A stretch of 32,000 nucleotides of DNA from Thermodesulfobacteriota bacterium (GCA_040755455.1 JBFMAY010000014.1:30308-62307), one strand, 5' to 3'; shown: positions 11,801-26,074, counted from the stretch's first letter. Made by a program: numbers and translations. The notes: a model not told the origin generated them from the letters alone.

Positions 11801-12964
11801 GCCGTTGAGCCAGAAGCTGCCAAGCCCCATGAACAGGGCCGTCACCGCGTCTTTCCCCCCCTGCTGCCATATCTGCGAAGTGAAATCCGGCTTGAAGTTT
11901 TCCAGTTTGGCCTTGGTCACCTGCTGGAGAATCCTGTAGGCCGGGAGCAGGGGATTATTGCTCTGCTCCGTTTCCACCGTGGCGATAAAGGAGGAGATGA
12001 CCGGATACTTCCGGTAGTCGCCTGATTTCAGCAGGGCCAGGATAAAGATGAGTCCTTCCATGCCGATGAAAAAAACGTTTTTTGCCTCTTTCTTTATGCG
12101 CAGCTCGATCAGATCTTCCTGGAAGCTGGCAATGGCTGCCGGGTTGTTGCCGAGCAGGAATTCCAGCCAGCCACGCAGGCCGAAGGAGTCAATGTGGTTG
12201 CCGGCCTCGGCAATTTTCAGGCGGGCCGCATCCATATCGGCCCGTAGCAGCTGGTTGAGAATAATCAGATAATAGATGGAGGGCCAGCCCTGCCGCGGAA
12301 TCACCTTCAGGGTGTTTTCATCGGTGAGATAAGCAAGAGGCAGGTCGAAGGATTCAAGGTCGAGGAGGCTTTTTCGGCTTATTTCATGGAGGCTGTGGAG
12401 CTGCAGGTGGGGCGGCAGGGTGCTGAACCACCGGGCCTCAAACGGGTTGTTGACGATTTCCACCAGCGGGGAGTGCAGTTCCGAGGTGTCCGGGCAGTCA
12501 TAATAGCGCAGGAGATGTTCGTTGAAATGATCGAACTTGCCCAGGTACAGACCGATGCGCATTTCCCGTAAATGGCGCAGGCTTTTCTGCAGCAGGGTAT
12601 CGTAGGCCTGCCCATTGGCGGGAAGATGTTTGCCGACGATGCGGGCCATGCGGGCAAAGTTGCCGGCGGTCAGGGCTTTCCTGCTGATGATTTCCACCAT
12701 GAGGGGGTGGCACTGGCAGCGCCAGGTCACGAGATCTTGTTCCTGCAGTTTGCGCAGCATAGCGGATTGCGGCCGCGCCGCGCCGGGCAGGTTTGCATCA
12801 TCGTGCCGGCCGGTAAATTCCTGGAAGCAGCTGATGATGGCGGCAGCGCCGGCGGGCTCGAAAATGATCGAGATGAGCTGGAGCAGTTCCTGCTCTTCCC
12901 TGGCCAGGGCTTCATACTGGGAGAGAAGATGCGTAATTTTCCGGGTGGATGAAAATTTTGCCAT
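8819..12964 (-). CDS. SNF2-family DEAD/DEAH-box helicase with large N-terminal extension
   Basis: The 1381-aa ORF has helicase motifs in its C-terminal roughly 480 aa: LADDMGLGKT (motif I), DEAQAIKN (motif II), GTPIENHLGELWNLFNF, and QASDRAHRIGQTRPVTVYRL (motif VI). The preceding roughly 900 aa are helical or of unknown fold. Part of that region may be the bacterial SNF2 helicase-associated domain. Confidence 0.9.
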   Translation of the reverse strand: MAKFSSTRKITHLLSQYEALAREEQELLQLISIIFEPAGAAAIISCFQEFTGRHDDANLPGAARPQSAMLRKLQEQDLVTWRCQCHPLMVEIISRKALTAGNFARMARIVGKHLPANGQAYDTLLQKSLRHLREMRIGLYLGKFDHFNEHLLRYYDCPDTSELHSPLVEIVNNPFEARWFSTLPPHLQLHSLHEISRKSLLDLESFDLPLAYLTDENTLKVIPRQGWPSIYYLIILNQLLRADMDAARLKIAEAGNHIDSFGLRGWLEFLLGNNPAAIASFQEDLIELRIKKEAKNVFFIGMEGLIFILALLKSGDYRKYPVISSFIATVETEQSNNPLLPAYRILQQVTKAKLENFKPDFTSQIWQQGGKDAVTALFMGLGSFWLNGTLEAGQRDELHEFYTRARENGYDWLAMEYAALLYQATEIESYQDFSVAVCRKAAITSLLAVLPHEKAWQRALKALNIVSLEDEDAGPPQYRMVWLVDFKDGFVTIHPREQKLTASGKWSQGRSVALKRLHAGENLPFLTEQDQRIRASLRKKEFSHETSFEFDMDETLSALVGHPLLFSSAHPSVPVEFTRGEPELHATQTADKVLLEFSSPIGDEKVMAVRETPTRFRIIEISEKHRKIAAIIGDDGLRIPEGAKKQVLETLGNLSSCLTIHSDIGATSREIEEVRAADKIIMQLLPVGTGFRVSMLVKPFAVGGPYLYPGEGAVNVIAEIHGKRLQTCRNLDKERENCAQIEERCPTLARLSGMDGEWFIEDLQDCLEVLAEIQNLGDDVIIEWPEGEKLAIRHHASFQDFQLHIRRKQNWFELDGQLAIDQDKVMEMKTLLELIQANSGRFIPLGKGEFLALSREFRKQLDELTSFSEAHGQLRRMHPLACCTLEGFTESGIQVTADQQWQEQLQRIRESRAFQSEVPTTLQAELREYQIEGFKWLARLKHWGVGACLADDMGLGKTVQTLGIILQEAPHGPSLVVAPTSVCMNWQEEVRRFAPTLHTLIFGGKEREQLVDGLGPFDVLICSYGLLQQEDKLLSGKKWRVIVLDEAQAIKNIATKRSRAAMELDGNFKMITTGTPIENHLGELWNLFNFINPGLLGSLEQFNQRYAMAIEKDKDKNARKKLKKLIQPFILRRLKSQVLEELPPRTEVVLQVDMSPEETAFYEALRIRALEKIEHTDASPSHRHMQILAEIMRLRQACCNPRLVQPDTAIQSSKLELFGTIIMDLIENRHKALVFSQFARHLHIIRAFLDERNITYKYLDGTTPALKRQEQVAEFQAGDGDLFLISLKAGGLGLNLTAADFVIHMDPWWNPAVEDQASDRAHRIGQTRPVTVYRLVTRNTIEEKILRLHQDKRELADSLLEGSDLSNKLRAEDLLQLLDGF

Positions 12965-13158
12965 TTTGGTAGTATACCATAAAATTGCGGTCTGACTTGT
13001 TCATTTTTAGCAGCCAGCATGGGGGAAACCAAAAAAACGAGCGCGTCGCCGCCCGCGGCATGGGCCGGCAGGCAGCAAGGGCCGCCGGTTTTGTCCTGCT
13101 ATGATGATATGTGTGTTTTTTACTGGACAAAGTTTCTTTTTTTCAGTTTGTTCATCAC

Positions 13159-13908
13159 ATGAAAATACATTTTTTGGGGGTTGGCGAGGCCTGCGATGCA
13201 CGCTGTCCCAATACATCGCTGCTTGTTACGGTAGGAAACGGCCGGCGTTTTCTGCTTGACTGCGGCTTTACCGTCCCGCATCTCTATTTTGCCGTAAGCC
13301 TCGACCCGGACGAGCTGGATGCGCTGTGGATTTCCCACTTTCATGGCGATCATTTTTTCGGTGTGCCGCTGCTGCTGCTCAGGTTCTGGGAAATGGGCCG
13401 CCGGAAAAAGCTGGTTATTGCCGGGCCCCGGGGAGTACGGGAAAAAATTGCGGCGGCCATGGAGCTTGCCTACCCGGACTTCATGGCCCGGCTCATGTAT
13501 CACCTTGAATTTGTCGAAATTGAACCGGGAGACGGCCGGGACATTGCCGGCACAGGCTGGCGCACGGCGGAAAATGTCCATTCCGAGCGTTGCCTGGCCT
13601 TGTGTATCGATGACGGCGGCCACCGCATCTTTTACAGCGGGGATGGCCGGCCGACCAGGGAGACGGCGGCTCTGGCCCGGGGCTGCGACCTGATCGTGCA
13701 TGAGGCCTTCCGGCTGGGCGAGGAAGTGGACAACCACGGCAGTGTCAGGGGCTGCCTTGAATTCGCCGGCAGGGCCGGGGTGAGGCACCTTGCCCTGGTG
13801 CATGTGCAGCGCACCTGCCGGGAGACCGCCCAACAAACGGTCGCCGGGCTGGTTCGTGACGGTCTGCATGTTTTTCTGCCGGAACCGGGGGAGCTGTTTT
13901 GTTTATAA
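13159..13908 (+). CDS. MBL-fold metallo-hydrolase (RNase Z/BN-like)
   Basis: MKIHFLGVGEA...LLDCG ... ISHFHGDHFFG (the HxHxDH motif) ... HEAF ... LVH. I chose the ATG at 13159; the track ORF starts at 13111. Confidence 0.85.
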   Translation: MKIHFLGVGEACDARCPNTSLLVTVGNGRRFLLDCGFTVPHLYFAVSLDPDELDALWISHFHGDHFFGVPLLLLRFWEMGRRKKLVIAGPRGVREKIAAAMELAYPDFMARLMYHLEFVEIEPGDGRDIAGTGWRTAENVHSERCLALCIDDGGHRIFYSGDGRPTRETAALARGCDLIVHEAFRLGEEVDNHGSVRGCLEFAGRAGVRHLALVHVQRTCRETAQQTVAGLVRDGLHVFLPEPGELFCL

Positions 13909-14139: not shown

Positions 14140-14856
14140 ATGTACGAAAATGGTTTTAATAGAACGGTTACCGTTTCCCAGGCCGAAACCCAGGCCTCAA
14201 CGATTTTCCTGGCCAAGGTTTTCAACTGGATGGCCATGGGGCTGGGACTCACCGGGCTGATGGCCTTTCTGGTGGCCAACTCGGAAACAGCGATGCAGAT
14301 TTTTATCTTTAACCCCATGATGCGCTGGGGGCTCATTTTTGCCGAGCTGGGGCTGGTTTTTTATCTGTCCGCCAGGGTGATGCGTCTTTCCCCCCAGGCG
14401 GCAACCGCCCTCTTTCTCATCTACTCGGCCTTAAACGGCATCACCCTGTCCGTGATCCTGCATGTGTATACCGCCACCTCCGTGGCCGCCACCTTCTTTA
14501 TCACCGCCGGCATGTTCGGCGCCATGGCCATTTACGGCCTGGTAACCAAGAAGGACCTGAGCGGCCTGGGCTCCTTCATGTTCATGGGGCTGATCGGCAT
14601 GATCATTGCCTCGGTGGTCAATATCTTCCTGCAGAGCTCCATGATGGCCTGGATCGTCTCCGGCCTTGGCGTGATTATCTTCACCGGGCTCACCGCCTAT
14701 GATGTGCAGAAGATTACCCAGATCGGCGCATCCGGCATCATGCGGGAGGGCGAAGCCGCCATCCGCAAGGGGGCGATCATGGGCGCCCTGGCCCTGTATC
14801 TTGATTTCATCAACCTGTTCCTGAGCCTGCTGCATTTCCTCGGCAACCGGGAATAG
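14140..14856 (+). CDS. Bax inhibitor-1/YccA family membrane protein
   Basis: The 238-aa polytopic ORF has the N-terminus ...FLAKVFNWMAMGLGLTGLMAF. The C-terminal motifs GLTAYDVQKI and ALYLDFINLF are typical of BI-1/YbhL/YccA proteins. RBS GGGAGG. Confidence 0.9.
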   Translation: MYENGFNRTVTVSQAETQASTIFLAKVFNWMAMGLGLTGLMAFLVANSETAMQIFIFNPMMRWGLIFAELGLVFYLSARVMRLSPQAATALFLIYSALNGITLSVILHVYTATSVAATFFITAGMFGAMAIYGLVTKKDLSGLGSFMFMGLIGMIIASVVNIFLQSSMMAWIVSGLGVIIFTGLTAYDVQKITQIGASGIMREGEAAIRKGAIMGALALYLDFINLFLSLLHFLGNRE

Positions 14857-14866
14857 TTCCTTGCCG

Positions 14867-14921
14867 CCCCGTGGTTTTTACCACGGGGAAATTCATTAGG
14901 GGCGGTTCGCGAACCGCCCCT
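14867..14921 (+). terminator. two consecutive GC-rich hairpins after the BI-1 gene (candidate terminator/mRNA stabiliser)
   Basis: CCCCGTGG-ttttta-CCACGGGG (14867-14888) and the perfect 24-nt palindrome AGGGGCGGTTCG/CGAACCGCCCCT (14898-14921). No U-tract follows, so intrinsic termination is uncertain. Confidence 0.35.
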
Positions 14922-15133
14922 GCTACCCCAACCTCTTGCATCCTTTTTCCCCCTTCCTTCCTGCGCATTTCCAATCAGCAGGGATTTCATTTTTTTAATC
15001 TTCCTGCCATCTGATAGCAGTTTTCTCTTGCAAATTTTTTAATTGCGGGTTTTTTTCTGAGCAGTCATTCATTTTTTGGGGAGGCTGCCATTCTCCCTGT
15101 TTCCCGCTAAACAGCCAAAACGGAAAAAAACGG

Positions 15134-17968
15134 ATGAGTAACACCAAACCCACGGTGTTTATCAGCTACAGCCACAAGGATGAGGAGTGGAAAAATCAGC
15201 TTCTCCCGCATCTCAAGGCCTTTGAGCAGCAGGGCGATCTGCTGCTCTGGCATGACCGCAGGATCGACACCGGCGCAGACTGGTTTCCGGAGATCGAGGA
15301 GGCGGTGGAAAGGTCACGGGTAGCAGTCTGTATTATCTCAGAAAATTTCCTGGCCTCGGATTTCATTATCAAGGAGGAGGTGCCGGACCTGCTGAAACGG
15401 CGGGAGGCCAAAGATCTGATCATTATGCCTTTGCTTGCTGAGCCCTGCCCGTGGCAAGCCATCCGCTGGCTCAAGGGTATCCAGATGTTTCCCTCGGACA
15501 ACAATTGCCTTGCCGCCATCAGAGGCAAAACAAAGCGGAAACAACTGCTGGCGGATTTTGCCATCAAGGTGGCGGATCAGGCAGTTCCTACGAGATTGGA
15601 TGAGTTGCTTACCGTCCGGAAGTCTTCCACGTGCATTATCAGTCTTTGCGAGACATTCCAGCCCTCTCTTGATTATAGAATTGAGATCTCCCATCTTCCC
15701 GTGACCGGGGTCGAACTCTTTGGCCGCGAGGCGGAGCTTGAACTGTTGGACAATTCCTGGAAAGAGGGCAAAACCAATGTCATCAGTTTCGTGGCCTGGG
15801 GCGGGGTGGGGAAATCCACCCTGATCAACCGTTGGCTCGCCGAGATGGCCATGGACAGCTATCGGGCCGTCGCCCGGGTCTTTGGCTGGTCCTTTTACAG
15901 CCAGGGGACCGGTGAGTGGGTCACCTCGGCGGACCGCTTCATTGCCGAGGCCCTGGCCTGGTTTGGTGATCCGGACCCTACGACAGGCTCACCCTGGGAC
16001 AAGGGCCAGCGCCTGGCAGATCTCATTCGCAAAGAGCGGACTCTTCTGGTGCTGGACGGGCTGGAGCCGCTGCAGGCCGAGCATGACTTTGAAAGAGGCC
16101 GGATCAAGGACCCTGGCCTGGCCGTCCTGATTAAAGAATTGGCAAAAGACAATCCCGGCCTCTGCCTCATCACCACCCGTGAACAGGTGGCTGATCTCAA
16201 ACGCTTCCCGCAAAACGTGCTGGAAAGAAATCTTGAGCAGATATCCGCTCAAGCCGGCCGGGCCCTGTTGCGGGTGGGCGGCGTGCGGGGCACGGACCGG
16301 GGATTGGAGGATGCCTCGCGCGCCTTCGGCAATCATGCCCTGGCCGTCAAGCTCCTGGCCGCCTATCTCCATGCGATCCCAGAACACCACATCAAACACG
16401 CGGCCGATATCCCCGACCTGGATATCCTAGATGACCAGGGGCGACAGCCCCGTCGGGTCATGGCCGCCCTGCTGCAGCATTTGGGGGACTGCCCGGAGGT
16501 GGAGTATCTGCGGATTCTTGGCCTATTTGACCGACCGGCGGACCAGGAGGCCCTGACGGCGCTGCTCACTCCGCCGCCTATCCCGGATTTGACCGGTCAG
16601 ATCATGGCAGTTGCCGAAGGAGATCGCCATGACTGCCTCACCCGCCTGCGACGCCTGGGCCTTCTGGCCCCGGCAAGCAGCCATCGCGTCGGCGATCTGG
16701 ACTGCCATCCCCTGGTGCGGGAGCATATGGCCGACCTCCTCCAAAAGCAATTCCCCCAGGCCTGGCAGCAGGGCAACCTGCGGCTTTACGAGCACTATAA
16801 GGGGATAGCCAAGGAATACCCGGACACCATCGAGGAGATGGCTCCGCTTTTTTACGCCTGCGCCCATGGCTGCCGGGCCGGTAACCAACAGGAGGCGCTG
16901 ATTGAGGTGTATTGGAAACGTATTAAAAGGGGGAATGAGCATTACTGCACGCGAAAACTCGGCGCCTTCGGTTCTGATCTGGCGGCCCTGGCCAACTTTT
17001 TCGACTCCATCTGGGACCGGCCCGCGCCAGGGCTTGCTGAAATGTGGCAGGCTTGGGTCTTGGGCAATGCCGGTTTTCGCTTAAAGGCCCTTGGCAGGCT
17101 GGCCGAGGCAAAGAGGCCAATGCGGGACTGCTTGGAAATGTGCATCCGACAGAGAAATTGGTCGGAGGCGTCAAAAATTACTTCCAACCTCAGCGAGCTC
17201 TTCCTCGACCTGGGCGAGATGGCCTGGGCTGTGGAGTATGGGCAACAAACTGTGGAATTGGCCGCGCGCAGCGGTAATCGGCATTCGCGTGTGATTGGCC
17301 TTACCACCCATGCTGTTTCCCGCCATCAGGCCGGCCAATTGGCCGAGGCCGAAGAGCTGTTTCGTCAGGCTGAAGCCATGCAGCGGGAAGAGCAGCTCGA
17401 CTACCCCATGCTCTACTCACTGCGGGGATTCCAATACTGTGACCTGCTCTTTGATCTTTACCCGCCAACCGAGGTCTGGAAACGGGTGAAGAAGACGTTG
17501 GGCTGGGCGGAAAAGGCAACGGGAGTATCCCTCCTCGACATTGGCCTGGACCACCTCACCATGGGCCGGGCCTGCCAGCGGCTAGGTGAGCCGGTCACTG
17601 CCGCCACCTATCTCGCACAAGCCATAGACTTTTTGCGTAAAGCAAATTTTCAAGAGATTCTCCCACGCGGTCTCCTAGCCCGGGCCGCCTTTTGCCGGGA
17701 GCAGGGGCAACTGAACGCCGCCCGCCGGGATCTGGAGGAGGTCCTGGAGATCGCCGAACCCTGCGGCATGCGTCTCCATCTCACCGACTATCATCTGGAG
17801 AGCTGCCGGCTGGGGCTGGCCGAAAACGAGCTGCCCACTGCCCACGAGCATCTGGACAAGGCGAAAAAACTGGTCGCCGAGACCGGCTACCACCGCCGGG
17901 ACCGGGAGGTTCAGGAACTTGAAAAATTGCTGGCCGCCGCAGATACGGCCGGCAAACAGGCACCGTAA
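15134..17968 (+). CDS. TIR - NB-ARC (STAND P-loop NTPase) - TPR protein
   Basis: TIR: TVFISYSHKDEEW...LLWHDRRIDTGADWFPEIEEAVERSRVAVCIISENFLASDFIIKEEV. NB-ARC: Walker A FVAWGGVGKSTL (K227), Walker B LLVLDGLE (D308), RNBS-B-like LCLITTRE, and a GLPL-like GNHALAV. The C-terminal roughly 400 aa are helical TPR-like repeats. Confidence 0.9.
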   Translation: MSNTKPTVFISYSHKDEEWKNQLLPHLKAFEQQGDLLLWHDRRIDTGADWFPEIEEAVERSRVAVCIISENFLASDFIIKEEVPDLLKRREAKDLIIMPLLAEPCPWQAIRWLKGIQMFPSDNNCLAAIRGKTKRKQLLADFAIKVADQAVPTRLDELLTVRKSSTCIISLCETFQPSLDYRIEISHLPVTGVELFGREAELELLDNSWKEGKTNVISFVAWGGVGKSTLINRWLAEMAMDSYRAVARVFGWSFYSQGTGEWVTSADRFIAEALAWFGDPDPTTGSPWDKGQRLADLIRKERTLLVLDGLEPLQAEHDFERGRIKDPGLAVLIKELAKDNPGLCLITTREQVADLKRFPQNVLERNLEQISAQAGRALLRVGGVRGTDRGLEDASRAFGNHALAVKLLAAYLHAIPEHHIKHAADIPDLDILDDQGRQPRRVMAALLQHLGDCPEVEYLRILGLFDRPADQEALTALLTPPPIPDLTGQIMAVAEGDRHDCLTRLRRLGLLAPASSHRVGDLDCHPLVREHMADLLQKQFPQAWQQGNLRLYEHYKGIAKEYPDTIEEMAPLFYACAHGCRAGNQQEALIEVYWKRIKRGNEHYCTRKLGAFGSDLAALANFFDSIWDRPAPGLAEMWQAWVLGNAGFRLKALGRLAEAKRPMRDCLEMCIRQRNWSEASKITSNLSELFLDLGEMAWAVEYGQQTVELAARSGNRHSRVIGLTTHAVSRHQAGQLAEAEELFRQAEAMQREEQLDYPMLYSLRGFQYCDLLFDLYPPTEVWKRVKKTLGWAEKATGVSLLDIGLDHLTMGRACQRLGEPVTAATYLAQAIDFLRKANFQEILPRGLLARAAFCREQGQLNAARRDLEEVLEIAEPCGMRLHLTDYHLESCRLGLAENELPTAHEHLDKAKKLVAETGYHRRDREVQELEKLLAAADTAGKQAP

Positions 17969-18047
17969 AGAGTGGCCGAATGAAAATTATGCCAACAATA
18001 ACCGCTATGGCCGTAACCGTGGTTGGGAAAAAGCGAGGATCGTAACT

Positions 18048-18117
18048 CCGTAGGAGCGGGCCATGCCCGCGATCCTTGTGATGCCACGGTTATCGCGGGC
18101 ATGGCCCGCTCCTACGG
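18048..18117. repeat. REP-like nested palindrome (26-bp perfect inverted repeat, 18-nt loop)
   Basis: CCGTAGGAGCGGGCCATGCCCGCGAT (18048-18073) is the exact reverse complement of ATCGCGGGCATGGCCCGCTCCTACGG (18092-18117). Each arm contains its own mini-hairpin, GCGGGC-cat-GCCCGC. The loop segment CCACGGTTA also pairs with TAACCGTGG at 18014-18022. The motif resembles the GTAGGAGCG-type REP elements known from Pseudomonas. Confidence 0.75.
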
Positions 18118-18153
18118 CAAAAATGTGTGAATTTTAAAGTATTTTTAATAAGA

Positions 18154-18184
18154 TAGATGTTTCCATGCAGCCACTAAACATCTA
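18154..18184. promoter_or_regulatory. 9-bp inverted repeat just upstream of the phosphoesterase RBS (candidate operator or 5' UTR hairpin)
   Basis: TAGATGTTT (18154-18162), a 13-nt spacer, then AAACATCTA (18176-18184). The RBS AAGGAG lies at 18189-18194 and the ATG at 18201. Confidence 0.25.
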
Positions 18185-18200
18185 GCGCAAGGAGAAAGTC

Positions 18201-19691
18201 ATGCCCTTACCCCAATACGATGAAGTTCATGTCATCTCCGACCTCCACATGGGAGGGGAGAGCGGTTTTCAGATTCTCCGGGAGACCGAAAAACTCGCGG
18301 GTTTTATCCGCTGGGTCGCGGAACAAAAGCCGGACGGCCGGGTGGCCCTGGTGTTGAACGGGGATGTCATCGACACCCTGGCCGAGGAGAGCGGCGGCTA
18401 CATCGCGGTGGACAATGCCGAGGCCGTGGTCAAGCGGATCATGGCCGACCCGGCCTTTGCACCGGTCTGGGCCAGCCTGGCGGACTTTGTCAAAATTGCC
18501 AACCGCACCCTGGTCATGGTGCTCGGCAACCATGATCTGGAGATGTCCTTCCCCGGAGTGCAGCGCCTGGTGGTGGAAAGGCTGGCCGGGGATGATCCCC
18601 TGGCCCGGGCCCGCATCGAGTTTTCCACCATGGGGGCCGGTTTTTCCTGCCTGGTGGGCGGCTCCCGGGTCTTCTGCACCCATGGCAACGAGGTGGACGC
18701 CTGGAACTATACCCGTTACGAGGATCTTGCCAGGGCGGGCCGGCGGCTCAGCAGCGGCCGGTCGCTCAAACCAAGCGAATGGGAGCCCAACGCCGGCACC
18801 ATGATGGTCAAGGACGTCATGAATACGGTAAAAAAAGACTACCCCTGGATCGACCTGTTGAAACCGGAGATGCAGGCCGCGGTGGGGGTGCTCCTGGCCC
18901 TTGACCCCGGCCAGGTGGAGAAAATCAACCGCCTCCTGCCCATCATCGGCGAGAAGGTGGTGGGCAGCATGGAGGTGGATCAACGGCTCTCGGCCGAGGG
19001 TTTCATTGCTCCGGCCAAAAAGGAGGCCCGTCCCGCCTCGGTGGATAGTCTGCTTGGCCCCAGCCTCATGGAGGGACTGCGCAGCGGCGCCGGGGCCAAC
19101 CGTCCCACGGCTGACGCCCTGCTGCTTTCGGCGGAAAGGAAATACAAAACCGGCAGCGCCGTCACCGACCCCCATGACGAAACCCTGGGCACCGGCCAGT
19201 ATCTCTGGGACCGGTTCACCGGCTGGTTCAGAGGGGTCAGCAAGGTCGAGGCCCTGCGCCGGGCACTGAAAGACTGGCTCAAGGATGACCGTACCTTTGA
19301 TATCAAGGACCGGGACGAGACCTGCAAAGAGGTGGTGGCCTCGGTGGGGCAGGGCATTCATTTCCTGGTCACCGGCCACACCCATCTGGAAAGGGCCATT
19401 GACCTGGGCGGCGGCCGTTTCTACTTTAACTGCGGCACCTGGATCCGTTTGCTGAAATTCAGCAAGGCCATGCTGGAAGACGAAACGGCCTTCACGCCGG
19501 TATATGAGCTGCTGGTCAACGGTACAATGGAGAAAATCGACAAAAAGGACTTTAACGGTCAGCCCTTTGTCATGCCCCAGCAGAGCGCGGTCAGCATCAG
19601 GGTTGAAGCGGGGAAGGTGGTGGGCAGACTGCTCCACATAGAGGGAATCGACCCAGTCTCTCCGAAGACAATCCAACAGTTCACGAGGTAA
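18201..19691 (+). CDS. calcineurin-like metallophosphoesterase with large internal insertion
   Basis: MPE motifs occur in order: VISDLHMGG (D14, H16), LNGDVID (D55), LGNHDLE (N110, H111), CTHGNE (H161), VTGHTHLE (H393, H395). About 220 aa with no recognisable motifs lie between H161 and GHTH. Confidence 0.85.
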   Translation: MPLPQYDEVHVISDLHMGGESGFQILRETEKLAGFIRWVAEQKPDGRVALVLNGDVIDTLAEESGGYIAVDNAEAVVKRIMADPAFAPVWASLADFVKIANRTLVMVLGNHDLEMSFPGVQRLVVERLAGDDPLARARIEFSTMGAGFSCLVGGSRVFCTHGNEVDAWNYTRYEDLARAGRRLSSGRSLKPSEWEPNAGTMMVKDVMNTVKKDYPWIDLLKPEMQAAVGVLLALDPGQVEKINRLLPIIGEKVVGSMEVDQRLSAEGFIAPAKKEARPASVDSLLGPSLMEGLRSGAGANRPTADALLLSAERKYKTGSAVTDPHDETLGTGQYLWDRFTGWFRGVSKVEALRRALKDWLKDDRTFDIKDRDETCKEVVASVGQGIHFLVTGHTHLERAIDLGGGRFYFNCGTWIRLLKFSKAMLEDETAFTPVYELLVNGTMEKIDKKDFNGQPFVMPQQSAVSIRVEAGKVVGRLLHIEGIDPVSPKTIQQFTR

Positions 19692-19695
19692 CCAT

Positions 19696-21648
19696 ATGTC
19701 CACGATCCACAACGTCAAACTGGAAATCCTGCGGCCCGGCCCGGCCCACAACCAGCTCCTTTCCCCGCTGACCCCTTATCTGGTCCTCTGCGGGGCGGAC
19801 GGCCCGGTGACCGTGCACCTGCCTTTTGAACAGAGGCAGCTCCTCATGCGACTGGAGCGGCTGCGCTATTCCAGCCAGGGAACAGCCATTGCCGCCGGGC
19901 AACGGGAGGCCGAGCTGCACGAACTGGGTGAGACCCTCGGCCGGATATTCGGCCAGGTTCCCGCCCTGCTGGCCGAACTCGGCAGTGTCCGGTCGCAAAC
20001 GGGAAAGCTCGTGCATCTGCGGCTGTCGCTCTCCGCCTTTGAACTGGCCCTGTTGCCATTTGAGACGGCCATTGCCGCCGACGGTTTTCCCGGCTCCGGC
20101 TCCCCCCTCTTTCTGCAATCAAACCTGCCCATCACCCTGACCAGGGAGGTGCGCCGCGGCCGGCCGCTGCCGGTGGAATGGAATCGGCCGCCCCGCATCC
20201 TCTTTATCTTCGCCTCGCCCGGGGGGCTGGCGGCGGTGCCTTACGAGCAGCATCTGCTGGCGCTGCGCCGTGCCATTGACCCGTGGGTGAAGATCCTGGA
20301 CAAAGAGGAGGAACGCCTGGCCGAGGTGAAAAATATCCTCACCGTGCTGCCCGAGGCGACTCTTGAGCAGATCCGGCAGGCCTGCATGGATACCGAATAC
20401 ACCCATGTCCATATCCTGGCCCATGGCGCCCCCTATGATCATGCCGGCGACCAGCATTACGGGCTTGCCCTGTGCAGCAGCGACAAGCCAGCGGAAATCG
20501 ATGTGGTTGACGGCGAGCGGCTCTCCATCGCCCTAACCACGGACCGGGCCTCGGCCTGCGGGGCCCGGAAGCGGCCCACCGTGGTCTCGCTGGCGACCTG
20601 TGATTCCGGTAATGTGCGCTCCGTGCTCATCCCGGGCGGCAGCATCGCCCACGAACTGCACGCAGCCGGCATCCCCTGGGTTTTTGCCTCCCAGTTTCCC
20701 CTGTGGATGCGTTCCTCCACCATCTTCACCGAGGTTCTCTATAAACGTTTGCTCAAAGGGGCCGATCCCCGCTGCGTGCTGCACGAACTGCGGCAACGGC
20801 TGCGCACCTCCTGCCAGGAGACCCACGACTGGGCGAGCATCGTGGCCTATGCCGCCGTGCCCTGGGATTTTGAAAACCAGGTAAGTGACTTTCGTGATGA
20901 GCAGACCCGCCGGCGGATCGAAACCAGATTCGCCCGCATCGATGATCTGCTCAAGGCCGGGAAGTCCGAGGGCCAGGATGAGAAAACGGTTACAGGGGAG
21001 ATGGCTGAGCTCTGTGCGGCCATTCGTGAGGAACTCAAGACATGGCGGGAAGAACCGGTCGCCCAATCTTCCGGCAAGGAGCTGGCTGAACGTCTGGGTG
21101 TGACTGCTGCCAGCGAAAAACGGATCGGTATCGCCTATGACCAGGTACCGGACAAAAAGAAAGAAAGCCTGGATGCCTACCGGAAATCCTGCGAATTCTA
21201 TAAAAAAGCCATTGAGGCCGAGCCTTCCAATCACTGGGTCATCACCCAGTATCTGTCAATGCTTGCGGTCAAAAATCGGGCGGAATACGGTGACATGACC
21301 GAACTGGTAAAGGAATACGGCCACTGGTGGTTCACAGCCCGGCAGATCAGCGGCTGGCATTTGCTCACCAAGAGTGGGGAAGACCTGGCCTGGGCCTACG
21401 GCACACTGGCCGAACTGGAAATGTTGGGTGCTCTTTATGGCGGCGAGGAATTCGACAGGCAGGAGGCTAAGGAGGAGATTACTCGCTATTGCGGCCAAAT
21501 CCTGCAAATCTGCGGTCCCCATGGGTTTCCCGTAGAATCAACCGCGCGGCAATTCCGCCGCTATGTGGAGATCTGGCAACACGAGAAATGGGATGATCTT
21601 GCCAAGACTGCCCTTGCCGCCTTCGGGGGGAGTGATGTATGCTCTTAA
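19696..21648 (+). CDS. CHAT-domain (caspase-fold) protease with helical TPR-like C-terminal region
   Basis: The catalytic dyad context is intact: THVHILAHGA (His243, nt 20422-20424) and VVSLATCDSG (Cys302, nt 20599-20601). The upstream LRLSLSAFELALLPFETA and PRILFIFASP segments are typical of CHAT. The ATG lies 4 nt after the MPE stop, with GAGG inside the end of the MPE ORF. Confidence 0.85.
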   Translation: MSTIHNVKLEILRPGPAHNQLLSPLTPYLVLCGADGPVTVHLPFEQRQLLMRLERLRYSSQGTAIAAGQREAELHELGETLGRIFGQVPALLAELGSVRSQTGKLVHLRLSLSAFELALLPFETAIAADGFPGSGSPLFLQSNLPITLTREVRRGRPLPVEWNRPPRILFIFASPGGLAAVPYEQHLLALRRAIDPWVKILDKEEERLAEVKNILTVLPEATLEQIRQACMDTEYTHVHILAHGAPYDHAGDQHYGLALCSSDKPAEIDVVDGERLSIALTTDRASACGARKRPTVVSLATCDSGNVRSVLIPGGSIAHELHAAGIPWVFASQFPLWMRSSTIFTEVLYKRLLKGADPRCVLHELRQRLRTSCQETHDWASIVAYAAVPWDFENQVSDFRDEQTRRRIETRFARIDDLLKAGKSEGQDEKTVTGEMAELCAAIREELKTWREEPVAQSSGKELAERLGVTAASEKRIGIAYDQVPDKKKESLDAYRKSCEFYKKAIEAEPSNHWVITQYLSMLAVKNRAEYGDMTELVKEYGHWWFTARQISGWHLLTKSGEDLAWAYGTLAELEMLGALYGGEEFDRQEAKEEITRYCGQILQICGPHGFPVESTARQFRRYVEIWQHEKWDDLAKTALAAFGGSDVCS

Positions 21649-21740
21649 AATAGCATCCGGCAGAACACAGGGTGAAATGTTTCCCCTGCTGCCTATGGTG
21701 CCCGCCATGCATGGCAAGTAAATAGAAAGAAGGAAATATC

Positions 21741-22058
21741 TTGAGTAAGCCGGTGACAAAGATCAACACCCCCTTCGGGGAGTATGAGCCGCGGATTGCC
21801 GGCCGCGACCAACTGGAGCGCGCGGCGGCGGTCATGGGCGAGGCGGTGGAGGCCATCGCCCGGGTCAACCATGACCGGTGGGCGGCGGAGAGGATTGCCC
21901 AGGGCTGGCGCTACGGGGAAGAGCGGGATGACGCCGGAAAACTGCATCCGGATCTAGTCCCTTACGAGCACCTGACGGAAGCGGAAAAACGAATCGATGT
22001 GGAGGGGGCCAAGGCCATCGTTGCCGAACTGCTCAGGCTTGGCATTCTTCGGCAATGA
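21741..22058 (+). CDS. stand-alone RyR-domain protein
   Basis: AIARVNHDRWAAERIAQGWRYGEERDDAGKLHPDLVPYEHLTEAEKRIDVEGAKAIV matches the RyR repeat consensus (hd.Wa......GW.yG...d...k.hP.LvPy.eL.e.eK..dr). TTG start at 21741 with AAGGA upstream; an alternative ATG lies at 21834. Confidence 0.75.
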   Translation: MSKPVTKINTPFGEYEPRIAGRDQLERAAAVMGEAVEAIARVNHDRWAAERIAQGWRYGEERDDAGKLHPDLVPYEHLTEAEKRIDVEGAKAIVAELLRLGILRQ

Positions 22059-22078: not shown

Positions 22079-23002
22079 TCAGTTTCCATACAGTTTCTCA
22101 TACTTTCCCTGCAGCTGCAGAAGATTGTCCAGGTATTTGTCCTTGTCCTCCAGGCCGGTGGTTGCGGTCAGCTCCTCAATCAGGCCGTTAATGGGATATC
22201 TGATATCGATGCCCAGGGGGTTGGCGTTTTTCATGTTGGCCAGATCCATGACCAGCACGCAGTAATACTTGACCAGGGTCCTGAAGGCCGGCTCGCGGCG
22301 GAACAGATAGGCCTGGCCGCCGAGGGTGTTGAGAAAGAAGGTTGAGTAGCTGTACATATCCTCCATCGGTAACTGGATTGGGTATTCCGTGTCCTGGCAT
22401 TGCTCCCGGTGGACAATCAATGAGAAGAAGTCCGCCATCACCTCTTCGTAGTGACCTTTTTCAAGGGCCATGATTTTTTTCAGGATAAAGATATTCTTTT
22501 CCCCCAGCACCCGGTAGAAGTGGGCGGCATTCTGGAGGATGGCCAGCAGATTGTCCGTCTCCCTGGTGATAGTGGGCTTGTTGGCCAGCATTTTATTGAT
22601 AATCGTGGTGAAGTAAACTTTTGATCCGCCTTCCAGGTTGAAGGCGATGATGTAATCTTCCTTGTCCAGCCGGGCAAAAAACGCATCAATTCTGTCAGCG
22701 GTCCCCTTGCAGGGATCAATGGCAACCGCTTTGTCGGCTGTCTGCTTATCGGCCTCAGCCGCAATGTCGGCAGATTCTGTCTGGCCGGCAGAGTCGGAAT
22801 CGCCCTGGGTGGCAAGTCCTCTTTCAAGAACATTCACCTTTTCCTGCAATTTCTGCTGCTTCTGCTCAAGGGAGATGGCTGCCTGCTTTTCCTCCGCTTT
22901 TCTGTTGACATTGTAAAGTAAGAAGACGGCAACGGCGGCAAGGGCGAGAAGAACAAGGATAACAATTGATTTGGTGGGGGTGGGTTTCTTGGTATTTGAC
23001 AT
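22079..23002 (-). CDS. hypothetical membrane-anchored protein with coiled-coil segment
   Basis: The 307-aa ORF has an N-terminal TM helix (SIVILVLLALAAVAVFLLY), then a Q/K/E-rich segment, then a globular C-terminus. I recognised no family. It converges on the RyR gene with a 20-nt gap. Confidence 0.6.
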   Translation of the reverse strand: MSNTKKPTPTKSIVILVLLALAAVAVFLLYNVNRKAEEKQAAISLEQKQQKLQEKVNVLERGLATQGDSDSAGQTESADIAAEADKQTADKAVAIDPCKGTADRIDAFFARLDKEDYIIAFNLEGGSKVYFTTIINKMLANKPTITRETDNLLAILQNAAHFYRVLGEKNIFILKKIMALEKGHYEEVMADFFSLIVHREQCQDTEYPIQLPMEDMYSYSTFFLNTLGGQAYLFRREPAFRTLVKYYCVLVMDLANMKNANPLGIDIRYPINGLIEELTATTGLEDKDKYLDNLLQLQGKYEKLYGN

Positions 23003-23218: not shown

Positions 23219-23596
23219 ATGGCAAATGCTTCTGTGAAAATTCTGGTGGTGGATGACTCAAGGGTCATGAGGCGGATTATCGCCTCATTCCTGGCGAAAA
23301 TGGGTTATAATGAGGTGCTGGAGGCGTCGGACGCCGGCTGTGCCTTGAAGATTCTTGCCACCGAGCAGGTTGCTGTCGTCATCTCCGATTATTCCATGCC
23401 CGGCATAAGTGGCCTTGAGCTGCTGAAGACCATCCGTCGTGACCCGGTAAATAAGGATATGCCGTTTGTCATGGTAACTGCCGAGGCACAGCTCGGACAG
23501 ATTATCGCCGCATTCAGAGAAGGGGCGCAGCAGTACGTTACCAAGCCTTTTACCTCCGAGTATATGGAGTATGTCATAAATAAGGTTGTGCGGTGA
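23219..23596 (+). CDS. cheY: CheY-like single-domain response regulator
   Basis: KILVVDDSRVMRR..., VVISDYSMPGISGLELL (phospho-acceptor Asp), FVMVTAEA, and YVTKPF. The ORF is 125 aa. Confidence 0.88.
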   Translation: MANASVKILVVDDSRVMRRIIASFLAKMGYNEVLEASDAGCALKILATEQVAVVISDYSMPGISGLELLKTIRRDPVNKDMPFVMVTAEAQLGQIIAAFREGAQQYVTKPFTSEYMEYVINKVVR

Positions 23597-24865: not shown

Positions 24866-26074
24866 ATGCCTGTCTATGTCTGGAAGGGAGTTAATTCATA
24901 CGGTGAGAAAAGAAAAGGAAGAATCGAGGCGCACAGTGAAGCCGCCGCGCTTTCCCAGCTAAAAAAGATCAGAATCAAGCCGACCGTTCTGAAGGTGGCG
25001 CCAAAAGATCTTTTTGGCAATCTTGCCATGTTCCAGCCGAAGGTGACCGGCAAGGATGTGGTGATTTTCACCCGGCAGCTTTCCACCATGATTGACGCCG
25101 GTCTCCCGCTGGTGCAGAGTCTGGATATTCTCGCGGGTCAGCAGGAAAATCCTACATTCAAAAAATTGCTGACCGAGATCCGTATTGATGTTGAATCAGG
25201 CATGACCTTTGCCGATGGCATGAAAAAACACCCCAAGGTGTTTGACAATCTTTACTGCAACATGATTGACGCCGGAGAGGTCGGCGGTATTCTCGACACC
25301 ATTCTCAACCGTCTTGCCGGCTTTATGGAAAAAAGCATGGCCTTGAAGAAAAAGATCAAGGGCGCCATGACCTATCCGATCATCTGTCTCTGCATTGCTC
25401 TGGTCATCACTGCCGTTATTCTGATATTTGTCGTACCGGTTTTTGCCAAAATGTTTGCCGATTTCGGTTCGGCCCTCCCGGCTCCCACCCAGATAGTGGT
25501 CGATATCAGTAATTTCGTCAAAAGCAATTTTTTCTTCATGGCCGCCGCCCTTGCCGTTATCGTTGTTGCCATCAAGAAAATTTATAACACGGAAAAGGGG
25601 CGGAAAAAGATCGATGTGCTGCTCATTAACGCTCCTGTTTTCGGGCCGCTTATCCGCAAGGTGGCGGTGGCCAAATTCACCAGAACGCTGGGCACCATGC
25701 TGCACAGCGGTGTCCCCATTCTGGATTCGTTGACCGTGGTCGGCAAAACAGCAGGCAACAAGGTTATCGAGCAGGCCGTCTTCAGGGTGGCGGACAGCAT
25801 CACGGAAGGGCGTTCCATCGCCGAACCCCTCGAAGAGACGGGGGTTTTCCCCAGCATGGTTGTGCAGATGATCAATGTCGGCGAGGCCACGGGCGCGCTT
25901 GACACCATGCTGGAAAAGATAGCTGATTTTTACGACGAGGAGGTTGATCAGGCGGTGGAGAACATGACCGCCATGATTGAACCGTTCATGATGGTTTTCC
26001 TCGGTGGACTTATCGGCGGACTGGTCATCGCCATGTATCTGCCGATTTTCAAGATGGCCAGCGTCATCGGTTAG
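24866..26074 (+). CDS. pilC: type IV pilus assembly platform protein PilC (GspF family)
   Basis: The 402-aa ORF starts MPVYVWKGVNSYGEKRKGRIEA. It has two GspF repeats (FTRQLSTMIDAGLPLVQSL and FTRTLGTMLHSGVPILDSL) and three TM segments. Confidence 0.9.
   Translation: MPVYVWKGVNSYGEKRKGRIEAHSEAAALSQLKKIRIKPTVLKVAPKDLFGNLAMFQPKVTGKDVVIFTRQLSTMIDAGLPLVQSLDILAGQQENPTFKKLLTEIRIDVESGMTFADGMKKHPKVFDNLYCNMIDAGEVGGILDTILNRLAGFMEKSMALKKKIKGAMTYPIICLCIALVITAVILIFVVPVFAKMFADFGSALPAPTQIVVDISNFVKSNFFFMAAALAVIVVAIKKIYNTEKGRKKIDVLLINAPVFGPLIRKVAVAKFTRTLGTMLHSGVPILDSLTVVGKTAGNKVIEQAVFRVADSITEGRSIAEPLEETGVFPSMVVQMINVGEATGALDTMLEKIADFYDEEVDQAVENMTAMIEPFMMVFLGGLIGGLVIAMYLPIFKMASVIG

Follow-up and report, generated by a model that had tools for sequence, protein, structure and literature searches.

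A conserved metallophosphoesterase–CHAT protease gene pair, recurrently adjoined by TIR genes, as a candidate TIR-linked immune module

The DNA analysed here, hereafter the window, is a stretch of 32,000 nt from a Thermodesulfobacteriota bacterium (GCA_040755455.1 JBFMAY010000014.1:30308-62307), with all positions counted from its first nucleotide. It harbors a block of four genes that encode a TIR-STAND-TPR protein (gene 1), a metallophosphoesterase (MPE), a CHAT protease and a small RyR-domain protein. A preliminary description had placed four co-oriented, same-strand genes here as one candidate defence system, and open reading frame (ORF) calling on the window found four ORFs at exactly those positions, all on the + strand (15134-17968, 18201-19691, 19696-21648 and 21741-22058). 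By comparing this block with its relatives in other genomes we find that the conserved core is a two-gene module, MPE followed by CHAT, because this pairing is invariant and no other gene is universally kept. Rather than a fixed four-gene system, the pair appears to be a so far undescribed immune module linked to TIR, and the data favour a picture in which an autonomous-looking MPE-CHAT pair repeatedly recruits TIR proteins that carry their own sensor and switch modules, and sometimes an RyR protein as well.

A scan of one genome per GTDB species (~185,579 species representatives) returned 328 CHAT relatives, and the genomic context of 80 of these loci was analysed with 10-kb flanks (loci are cited below by their L numbers). 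In 80/80 of these species-level loci CHAT is directly preceded by a co-oriented MPE gene; the loci represent at least seven phyla and include Desulfobacterota, Alpha-, Beta- and Gammaproteobacteria, Planctomycetota, Chloroflexota, Rokubacteria and Acidobacteriota. This order also occurs in 74/74 metagenome loci with room upstream of CHAT and in all three distant copies (34-44% identity), which are carried by a Methylobacterium plasmid and Paraburkholderia megaplasmids. In the window only 4 nt separate the MPE stop from the CHAT start, with GAGG upstream. All-against-all clustering of the neighbour ORFs of the 80 loci yielded no third gene common to all of them; RNase E/RluC (Nitrosomonas) and an abhydrolase-ADC-patatin-GMC cluster (some Gammaproteobacteria) were considered for this role and rejected as lineage synteny only. 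The idea that the four genes form one conserved unit therefore fails, as only MPE-CHAT is invariant and the TIR-STAND-TPR gene is linked to it in syntenic near relatives only: the four-gene unit is lineage-specific. The split offered as an alternative in the preliminary description, TIR-STAND alone plus MPE-CHAT-RyR, comes close to the evolutionary picture found here. As a separate observation, an alpha/beta hydrolase, an acetoacetate-decarboxylase-like protein, a patatin-like phospholipase and a GMC oxidoreductase are encoded co-oriented and directly upstream of MPE-CHAT in L020 (2837-8330), and the same block occurs in L023-25, L034, L036, L041, L042 and L074; its hosts (Methylobacter, Shewanella, Rheinheimera and Azotobacter) represent three orders, and either co-transfer as an island or an extended system might explain it.

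The gene type that recurs beside the pair is TIR. An iterated TIR hidden Markov model (HMM) run over all six-frame ORFs of the 80 loci, with each match verified against Pfam, found TIR genes directly adjoining MPE-CHAT in unrelated lineages and in different architectures: LRR-Roc-COR-TIR and TIR-GGDEF (L030), SIR2-TIR (L029, L031 and L043), X-TIR (L049), TIR-vWA (L080), TIR-X (L051), TIR-FGE-sulfatase (L028), TIR-pterin-4a (L064) and several TIRs at one locus (L073), in addition to STAND-TPR and short TIR proteins. In an unbiased Pfam census of 361 non-redundant neighbour ORFs within ±5 kb, divided into three random thirds, TIR_2 was the most frequent family in every third (3+3+3 clusters); the other families, mostly housekeeping, reached at most 3 clusters per third, and all but one of them at most 2. 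Within 1 kb of the pair TIR ORFs reach a density of 5.98 per 100 kb, 7-10 times the values of 0.88 and 0.60 further out, with 9 TIR ORFs observed within 1 kb vs 1.04 expected (P = 1.6e-6). Six TIR genes are co-oriented with the pair at gaps of ≤83 nt, and the TIR-linked loci are scattered across the CHAT tree. The association is replicated in metagenome contigs, which add new lineages: a ROCO-type TIR protein is encoded upstream of the pair in L109-117, L120 has the order TIR, MPE, CHAT, TIR, and further TIR cases occur in L129 and L134. Genomes and metagenomes together contain 9 distinct TIR-protein clusters, of unrelated architectures, ≤600 nt from the pair and 15 within 3.5 kb. Of the ideas in the preliminary description, the “apoptosome logic” of a STAND NTPase beside a caspase-fold protease does not recur: the STAND module appears in no other lineage, and the common denominator is TIR. 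The step made there from TIR and a phosphoesterase to a nucleotide signal is supported by the recurrent, varied TIR neighbours and by the literature linking RyR domains to cyclic ADP-ribose (cADPR) (PMC13232231). The TIR partnership of MPE-CHAT is nevertheless facultative: a TIR gene adjoins the pair in ~10% of the species-level loci and lies within 10 kb in ~15%, so that, under the broad notion of Thoeris as a TIR gene recurrently co-operonic with an effector, the association is recurrent and significant but facultative at ~10-15% of loci.

The MPE (496 aa; 18201..19691, +), the first gene of the core, matches Pfam Metallophos at 4.5e-9 (37.5 bits vs a cutoff of 21.5) and has all five dimetal motifs intact: D14-x-H16, G54-D55, G109-N-H-D112, H161 and G392-H-x-H395. 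The initial call of a metallophosphoesterase with D14 and H16 as key residues is thus borne out by the Pfam match and by an alignment in which both residues, and all five motifs, are invariant among 25 homologues. A helical insert of ~220 aa (residues ~167-385) separates motifs IV and V, and the AlphaFold2 model (predicted local distance difference test, pLDDT, of 70.8) comprises a dimetal sandwich plus this insert, which is partly of low confidence. A Foldseek search of the PDB gave LpxH as the best match (6pib, 4.6e-5), followed by purple acid phosphatases and a zebrafish dimetal phosphatase (2nxf) that we take to be an ADPRibase-Mn family member; the rat enzyme of this family opens the cADPR pyrophosphate. 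In a Foldseek search of viral structures the only matches were to generic MPE or Mre11-like proteins. Like LpxH, the MPE of the window combines the dimetal core with an insertion between motifs IV and V; unlike LpxH, its insert of ~220 aa is far larger than the LpxH lid, and the protein is soluble and always accompanied by CHAT. JGI automatic annotation names homologues of the MPE LpxH, but we rejected it as an LpxH equivalog given that it has no NCBIfam match and no sequence relatives in the PDB, even at E<=1, which leaves a likeness at the level of the fold only. A profile search defines a family of 756 clusters at 50% identity (E<=1e-30), and its best 150 MPE representatives are all ~500 aa long and give no fusion (Rosetta-stone) evidence. 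A calcineurin-superfamily nucleotidyl phosphodiesterase has been listed beside TIR and PNPase among the nucleotide-directed effector domains of NTP-dependent conflict systems (Kaur et al., eLife 2020), and the Aravind group lists calcineurin-type phosphoesterases, TIR domains and caspases individually among the effector domains of conflict systems. On the opposite strand a 514-aa antisense ORF (18207-19751, -) covers the entire MPE gene; such shadow ORFs also lie opposite MPE in other GC-rich loci (cluster 10), and this one is most likely a codon-bias artefact and no gene.

The second core gene encodes the CHAT protease (650 aa; 19696..21648, +), with a Pfam CHAT match of 1.1e-22 over residues 76-385 (81.3 bits vs a cutoff of 24). 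The proposed caspase fold with an intact His/Cys dyad holds, as H243 and C302 are invariant in an alignment of 21 homologues. The protein consists of a conserved N-terminal region (residues 1-160), a caspase-fold core (residues ~165-390) and C-terminal TPR-S-like helical repeats (residues 392-642, nt 20869-21621; a weak Pfam TPR-S match), of which the core and the repeats are confident in the AlphaFold2 model (pLDDT 71.2). Its closest solved structure by Foldseek is SAVED-CHAT (8tl0, 2.4e-6), a filament, with Csx29 weaker, and the PADLOC SAVED_CHAT model matches at 3.3e-13 over the protease part only (residues 215-387). Full-length homologues with 56-91% identity occur in many taxa, and an exact-sequence look-up found the CHAT protein of the window not to be on record. 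Few parts of the family are as conserved as residues 1-157 (19696-20166), in which many columns are invariant (e.g., HNQLLSPLT), and these N-terminal ~160 residues may be an interface or fold-on-binding region, perhaps with MPE. A MAP3K_TRAF_bd/TPR-S protein of ~500 aa (cluster c14) is the second most recurrent non-syntenic neighbour of the pair, after TIR: it is encoded near it in five unrelated loci (L005, L030, L032, L035 and L073), and in L005 (6957-8468) the gene is co-oriented directly upstream of the pair with a 25-nt gap. BLASTP of the CHAT C-terminus against the neighbouring TPR-S proteins gave no significant match (E = 0.13).

Gene 1 of the block (15134..17968, +) encodes a protein of 944 aa with an N-terminal TIR domain (TIR_2 6.8e-15, residues 8-117, nt 15155-15484) and C-terminal TPR repeats (TPR_12 1.2e-11 and TPR_MalT 9e-10; residues ~640-920, nt 17051-17893). 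Between them, a Walker A motif (GGVGKST, 223-229, with K227) and a Walker B motif (LLVLDGLE, 304-311) mark an NTPase whose Pfam matches are sub-threshold only (NACHT 2.4e-4, 21.4 bits vs a cutoff of 26.7; AAA_16 3.4e-3). The domains first assigned to this protein thus stand with regard to TIR, a P-loop STAND NTPase and TPR, but we drop the label NB-ARC, for which Pfam gave no match, and keep “STAND P-loop NTPase” because the Walker motifs are clear. The two residues proposed as key are well placed, E81 in the column of the catalytic Glu of the plant TIR 3jrn and K227 within GGVGKST. Gene 1 also matches the ThsB-type TIR model of PADLOC (8.7e-20), and its region from TIR to P-loop aligns to the plant TNL RPP1 (7crb). 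A TIR-STAND-TPR homologue adjoins MPE-CHAT only in L006, L082/83, L099 and L161. L006 and L099 share with the window the flanking BI-1 and 307-aa genes, and L161 and L082/83 show downstream synteny with the window, their upstream flank lying beyond the contig end; all of these are thus the same locus by descent and provide no independent evidence for the STAND linkage. Among the 80 genome loci an iterated HMM of the NTPase region matched only the syntenic L006.

Gene 1 and MPE are separated by 232 nt (17969-18200, +), with a ribosome binding site (AAGGAG) at the end of the spacer, 5 nt before the MPE ATG. This spacer contains a palindrome resembling a repetitive extragenic palindrome (REP) at 18048-18117 (strand-neutral), a perfect hairpin with ~26-bp arms (GTAGGAGCGGGCCATGCCCGCGAT and its complement) and an 18-nt loop, present as a single copy in the window. 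The folding energy of the spacer hairpin is -92.8 kcal/mol (z = -6.2), matched by no shuffle. The strong palindrome had been recognised before; the spacer length given with it, 233 nt, is one more than we measure. In the nearest relative, L006, the equivalent spacer is only 24 nt long, with AAGGAG followed by the MPE ATG and with the REP-like palindrome absent, and the CHAT and RyR genes overlap by 4 nt, so that all four genes are tightly packed. On this comparison, the palindrome in the window is a lineage-specific insertion, and the arrangement of the four genes was originally tight within this lineage, given the 24-nt spacer and 4-nt overlap of L006. The spacer appears to be an insertion hotspot, since L082/L083 carry an IS110-family transposase at the same site as the REP-like palindrome of the window.

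The last gene of the block (21741..22058, +; TTG start) encodes an accessory protein of 105 aa with a single RyR repeat. The RyR-domain assignment made earlier is secure, with a match to Pfam RyR (PF02026) of 2.1e-19 (70 bits vs a cutoff of 27.4), and the PDB sequence matches are RyR repeats together with the 100-103-aa “putative ryanodine receptor” chains 3nrt/6uag, a B. thetaiotaomicron protein (PMC13232231). A phage protein of the same family, RyDEP (PF02026), binds or hydrolyses the TIR products 2'cADPR and 3'cADPR via H75, W78, H100 and D117 (PMC13232231, 2026 preprint), and H44, W47, H69 and D86 of the window protein are spaced exactly as these four residues (positions from PMC13232231); they are conserved in 43/44, 43/44, 38/44 and 44/44 relatives, respectively. 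RyR is a facultative third gene. In one Desulfobacterota clade it is the gene next after CHAT (the window, L001-3, L006, L081-83, L093-95, L099 and L161), and several of these RyR-bearing loci have no TIR-STAND gene and different flanks; L028/L125/L127 and L048 have RyR adjoining the pair in other orientations, which makes three lineages in all. This gene might have been captured from a phage as a counter-defence factor (a sponge or glycosidase of the RyDEP type) and have landed beside the pair by chance, considering that the RyR-domain proteins characterised so far are phage immune-evasion factors and that most MPE-CHAT loci have no RyR gene. We hold this to be very improbable: there are no phage genes nearby, the MPE-CHAT family is absent from the viral contigs of IMG/VR, and RyR and CHAT share 4 nt in L006, while in the syntenic L099 and L161 the RyR start precedes the end of the CHAT match by 3 nt; RyR also travels with the pair into different contexts (L001-L003, L081 and L093-95) and recurs with it in two further lineages and other orientations (L028/L125 and L048). 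The window RyR resembles RyDEP in its PF02026 domain and single ~100-aa repeat, with H, W, H and D at identical spacing; the difference is that RyDEP is phage-encoded, whereas the window RyR is chromosomal and in an operon with a TIR gene and the effector pair, which implies a predicted host role in regulation or sensing, not immune evasion.

Other genomes provided more distantly related small RyR genes. L084 (8001-10771; also L085) has no MPE-CHAT; there a small RyR gene, its product 64% identical to that of the window, lies 24 nt ahead of the gene of an 813-aa protein that begins with a TPR-S domain and matches EAL weakly, a hint that small RyR proteins have TPR-S-containing proteins as partners. 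In L088 a small RyR gene follows the gene of a 535-aa protein that has its own RyR domain. In the co-oriented cluster of L086 (4769-10759; also L087) a small RyR gene (94 aa) stands between the genes of a RelA_SpoT-RyR fusion (874 aa) and a TIR_2-PFK fusion (707 aa), with a NUDIX gene (136 aa) nearby; this cluster is an independent bacterial co-occurrence of RyR and TIR and looks like another undescribed nucleotide-signalling system.

Taken as a whole, we tentatively read the block as Thoeris-like, a reading to which we give a little less than an even chance: TIR would make an ADP-ribose (ADPR)-type signal, MPE-CHAT would execute the response, MPE would process or clear the signal and RyR would buffer it. 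The block would then be an operon around a widespread two-protein module, an LpxH-like MPE translationally coupled to a CHAT protease with a TPR-S-like C-terminus, and two accessory genes acquired in this lineage would connect the module with nucleotide signalling of the TIR/ADP-ribose type. The TPR arm of gene 1 may recognise an invader protein, upon which the STAND NTPase would oligomerise and gather the TIR domains, and from NAD+ these would make an ADPR-derived signal (a cADPR isomer or a related molecule). A complex of MPE and CHAT would perceive this signal, and MPE, as a putative nucleotide-pyrophosphatase-type enzyme, would either mature it by opening its pyrophosphate, in the manner of ADPRibase-Mn on cADPR, or degrade it as an off-switch. 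Activated CHAT would cleave cellular or phage proteins, leading to growth arrest or abortive infection, while RyR, by binding or cleaving cADPR-type molecules, might set the activation threshold and guard against leaky TIR activity. The stand-alone MPE-CHAT pairs of most genomes may respond to a TIR/NADase encoded elsewhere or sense their trigger via their own TPR-S domain. The formation of pRib-AMP in plants is an analogue of the pyrophosphate opening of a TIR-made signal, and a connection between cADPR and RyR domains is known from animal calcium signalling. By such analogies MPE-CHAT might be the effector of a new modular TIR-signalling immune family in which MPE processes a cADPR-type signal and the host RyR serves as ligand buffer or sensor; in this specific form we consider the proposal unlikely.

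Several observations weigh against the Thoeris-like reading. TIR genes are absent within 10 kb from 68/80 genome loci, so that an obligate pairing of generator and effector, as in Thoeris, does not hold, and MPE-CHAT-RyR occurs without TIR-STAND in other contexts (L001-L003 and L081). The interval between TIR-STAND and MPE accommodates a REP hairpin or an insertion sequence (IS) element, and TIR-STAND proteins normally work on their own as receptors that deplete NAD+ (Avs). We identified no ligand-binding domain in MPE or CHAT; residues 243-344 of MPE, a poorly conserved loop, are modelled with low confidence, and residues 1-157 of CHAT are modelled poorly by AlphaFold2 (pLDDT below 50). The flanks of the loci are mainly housekeeping, and PADLOC gave only sporadic single matches to classical defence genes on them.

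Many of these points fit an account in which the block consists of two or three independent neighbours, which we think possible but rather less than probable. Here TIR-STAND-TPR would be an autonomous Avs-like NAD+-depleting receptor and MPE-CHAT(-RyR) a separate, self-contained system, their adjacency reflecting the clustering of conflict genes; the TPR-S-like domain of CHAT would sense the trigger, and the protease would activate or partner the phosphoesterase, for example by cutting its flexible insert. The 68/80 loci without TIR and the cassette without TIR-STAND speak for it, as do the restriction of the STAND module to this single lineage, the sensor-type TPR-S-like domain that CHAT itself possesses, the low-pLDDT loop of MPE as a candidate cleavage site, and the fact that STAND-TPR receptors act alone in published work. 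The 232-nt hairpin spacer of the window and the IS110 insertion in L082/83 add that tight coupling to gene 1 is dispensable, and some loci do contain other defence genes (Shedu SduA, a Gabija/PARIS-like ATPase, Cas3, DarG and an operon with an ORC-CDC6-like protein and a calcineurin). Clustering in islands would, however, sample all defence families, whereas TIR is the sole recurrent one (9 clusters within 600 nt and 15 within 3.5 kb) and its genes peak sharply at the immediate boundary of the pair. Also against independence are the six co-oriented TIR genes at spacers of ≤83 nt and the 24-nt spacer of L006, flanks that are mostly housekeeping and not islands, and the independent arrival of RyR, a cADPR-binding fold, at the same pair.

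The spread of the pair bears on whether it is immune at all. MPE-CHAT retains 45-80% identity across phyla, with large invariant blocks, and is patchily distributed, being found in 328 of ~185,579 species from unrelated phyla; such patchiness at high identity speaks for horizontal transfer. One might see in MPE-CHAT a non-immune module for regulated proteolysis or stress, acting for instance in programmed cell death or developmental control in environmental bacteria and sometimes wired to NAD/ADPR metabolism. An identity of this level is unusually high for a defence gene, the flanks are largely occupied by housekeeping genes such as RNase E, PanB/C, LpxC and riboflavin genes, no MPE-CHAT relatives were found in IMG/VR viral contigs, and PADLOC has no model for MPE. 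We nonetheless judge a non-immune role quite unlikely in view of the horizontal transfer implied by the patchy distribution, the plasmid copies (one of them beside another conflict operon), the IS fragments beside MPE-CHAT in L081 and L082, the TIR, TPR-S and SIR2 partners typical of conflict systems and the immune SAVED-CHAT as the closest solved protease. The operon that adjoins the 38%-identical pair on the Methylobacterium plasmid (NZ_CP099612; L090, 9186-14084) encodes a Dam methyltransferase, a second metallophosphoesterase with a wHTH-calcineurin-associated domain, an ORC-CDC6-like protein and a hypothetical protein, and looks like another conflict system.

The four-gene combination had been described as matching no named system, and this is upheld: no PADLOC model fits the block. 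MPE and RyR have no PADLOC match, gene 1 and CHAT match only the generic TIR/ThsB and SAVED_CHAT models (PADLOC-DB 2.0.0, which is older than ThsE of type IV Thoeris), and genes 2-4 have no NCBIfam match. The nearest precedent is type IV Thoeris, in which a TIR protein and the caspase-like protease ThsE are connected by an N7-cADPR signal (Rousset et al., Science 2025 / bioRxiv 10.1101/2024.10.24.620036), making TIR plus a caspase-like protease a validated immune logic (Rousset et al.). In both cases a TIR gene is co-operonic with a caspase-fold cysteine protease, and the proposed logic would be shared, with TIR making an ADPR-derived signal and the protease acting as abortive-infection effector. 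Type IV Thoeris, however, has two genes, a short obligate TIR and a single caspase-like protease with its own C-terminal ligand domain, and no phosphoesterase, whereas here a CHAT/TPR-S protease is always accompanied by MPE, TIR is facultative and fused to large sensor and switch modules, and RyR is optional. The block is therefore not a type IV Thoeris system: its 944-aa TIR protein is fused to STAND-TPR, MPE always intervenes, and most MPE-CHAT loci have no TIR. Gene 1 resembles the STAND receptors of Avs/AVAST and the plant TIR-NLRs (RPP1 and ROQ1) in its N-terminal TIR, central P-loop STAND NTPase and C-terminal TPR, but in L006 it shares an operon with three other genes, which sets it apart from the Avs genes described, and it had no match to the PADLOC Avs/NLR models at E<=0.01. 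With SAVED-CHAT (CCaCC1) and the TPR-CHAT protease Csx29 (Craspase) the CHAT protein shares its fold and the fusion of helical repeats to CHAT; it differs in that its repeats are C-terminal and TPR-S-like, not N-terminal TPR, and in its obligate MPE partner. The SAVED-CHAT protease (type III CRISPR/CBASS-linked) is activated by a nucleotide second messenger; the window protein was rejected as a SAVED-CHAT on account of having no SAVED Pfam match and no cas or CD-NTase genes in the window.

In the literature combining CHAT with metallophosphoesterase, metallophosphatase or calcineurin-like we found no description of an MPE-CHAT pair, nor, in the literature searched, of a host RyR gene in a TIR operon, and the part of Yirmiya et al. 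accessible to us lists no CHAT, Metallophos or RyR, and no protease effector besides the type IV caspase. What appears to be new here is the MPE-CHAT pair and the host RyR gene in a TIR operon, TIR/caspase-like protease immunity being already known. If the link to TIR is functional, the pair would constitute a new Thoeris-like effector class, a two-protein phosphoesterase/CHAT-protease module whose signal generator is exchangeable and even dispensable in cis, and the block would contain the first host-side use in a TIR operon of an RyR domain, so far characterised only as phage counter-defence. Were MPE-CHAT the effector and the host RyR the buffer, bacterial immune operons could even be the evolutionary source of the connection between cADPR and RyR domains. 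The analysis defines a large uncharacterised family of at least 756 MPE clusters at 50% identity with clear catalytic residues to mutate, and even if the halves of the block are independent, the strictly conserved MPE-CHAT order makes the pair a clean candidate system of the caspase-like protease kind.

The surroundings of the block are as first described, with a BI-1 gene on one side (14140-14856; Pfam Bax1-I 4.9e-62) and a convergent gene on the other, a 307-aa ORF at 22079-23002. Direct reading of the upstream intergenic region (14857..15133, +) shows two short GC hairpins just past the BI-1 stop, followed by a T-rich stretch; the region is likely the BI-1 terminator plus the promoter region of the block, and no consensus sigma-70 site was called on its + strand. 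The G+C content of 16001-21000 is 60-64%, vs 52-58% in the upstream and 44-52% in the downstream flank, a contrast consistent with horizontal acquisition. Further out lies the gene of a 1381-aa Snf2-family helicase (8819-12964, -), which scores below threshold against “pilus expression-regulating Snf2 helicase”, the SCO1167 family and ZorD, and beyond the block lie a response regulator gene (23219-23596) and a PilC gene (24866-26074, +); the block appears to sit in a type IV pilus-related region. Finally, a metallo-beta-lactamase (MBL)-fold hydrolase (13111-13908, +) shows weak, sub-threshold likeness to RNase Z, to a cyclic-nucleotide-degrading phosphodiesterase model and to the anti-Pycsar protein Apyc1; its gene is kept in synteny in L006 and is probably housekeeping.

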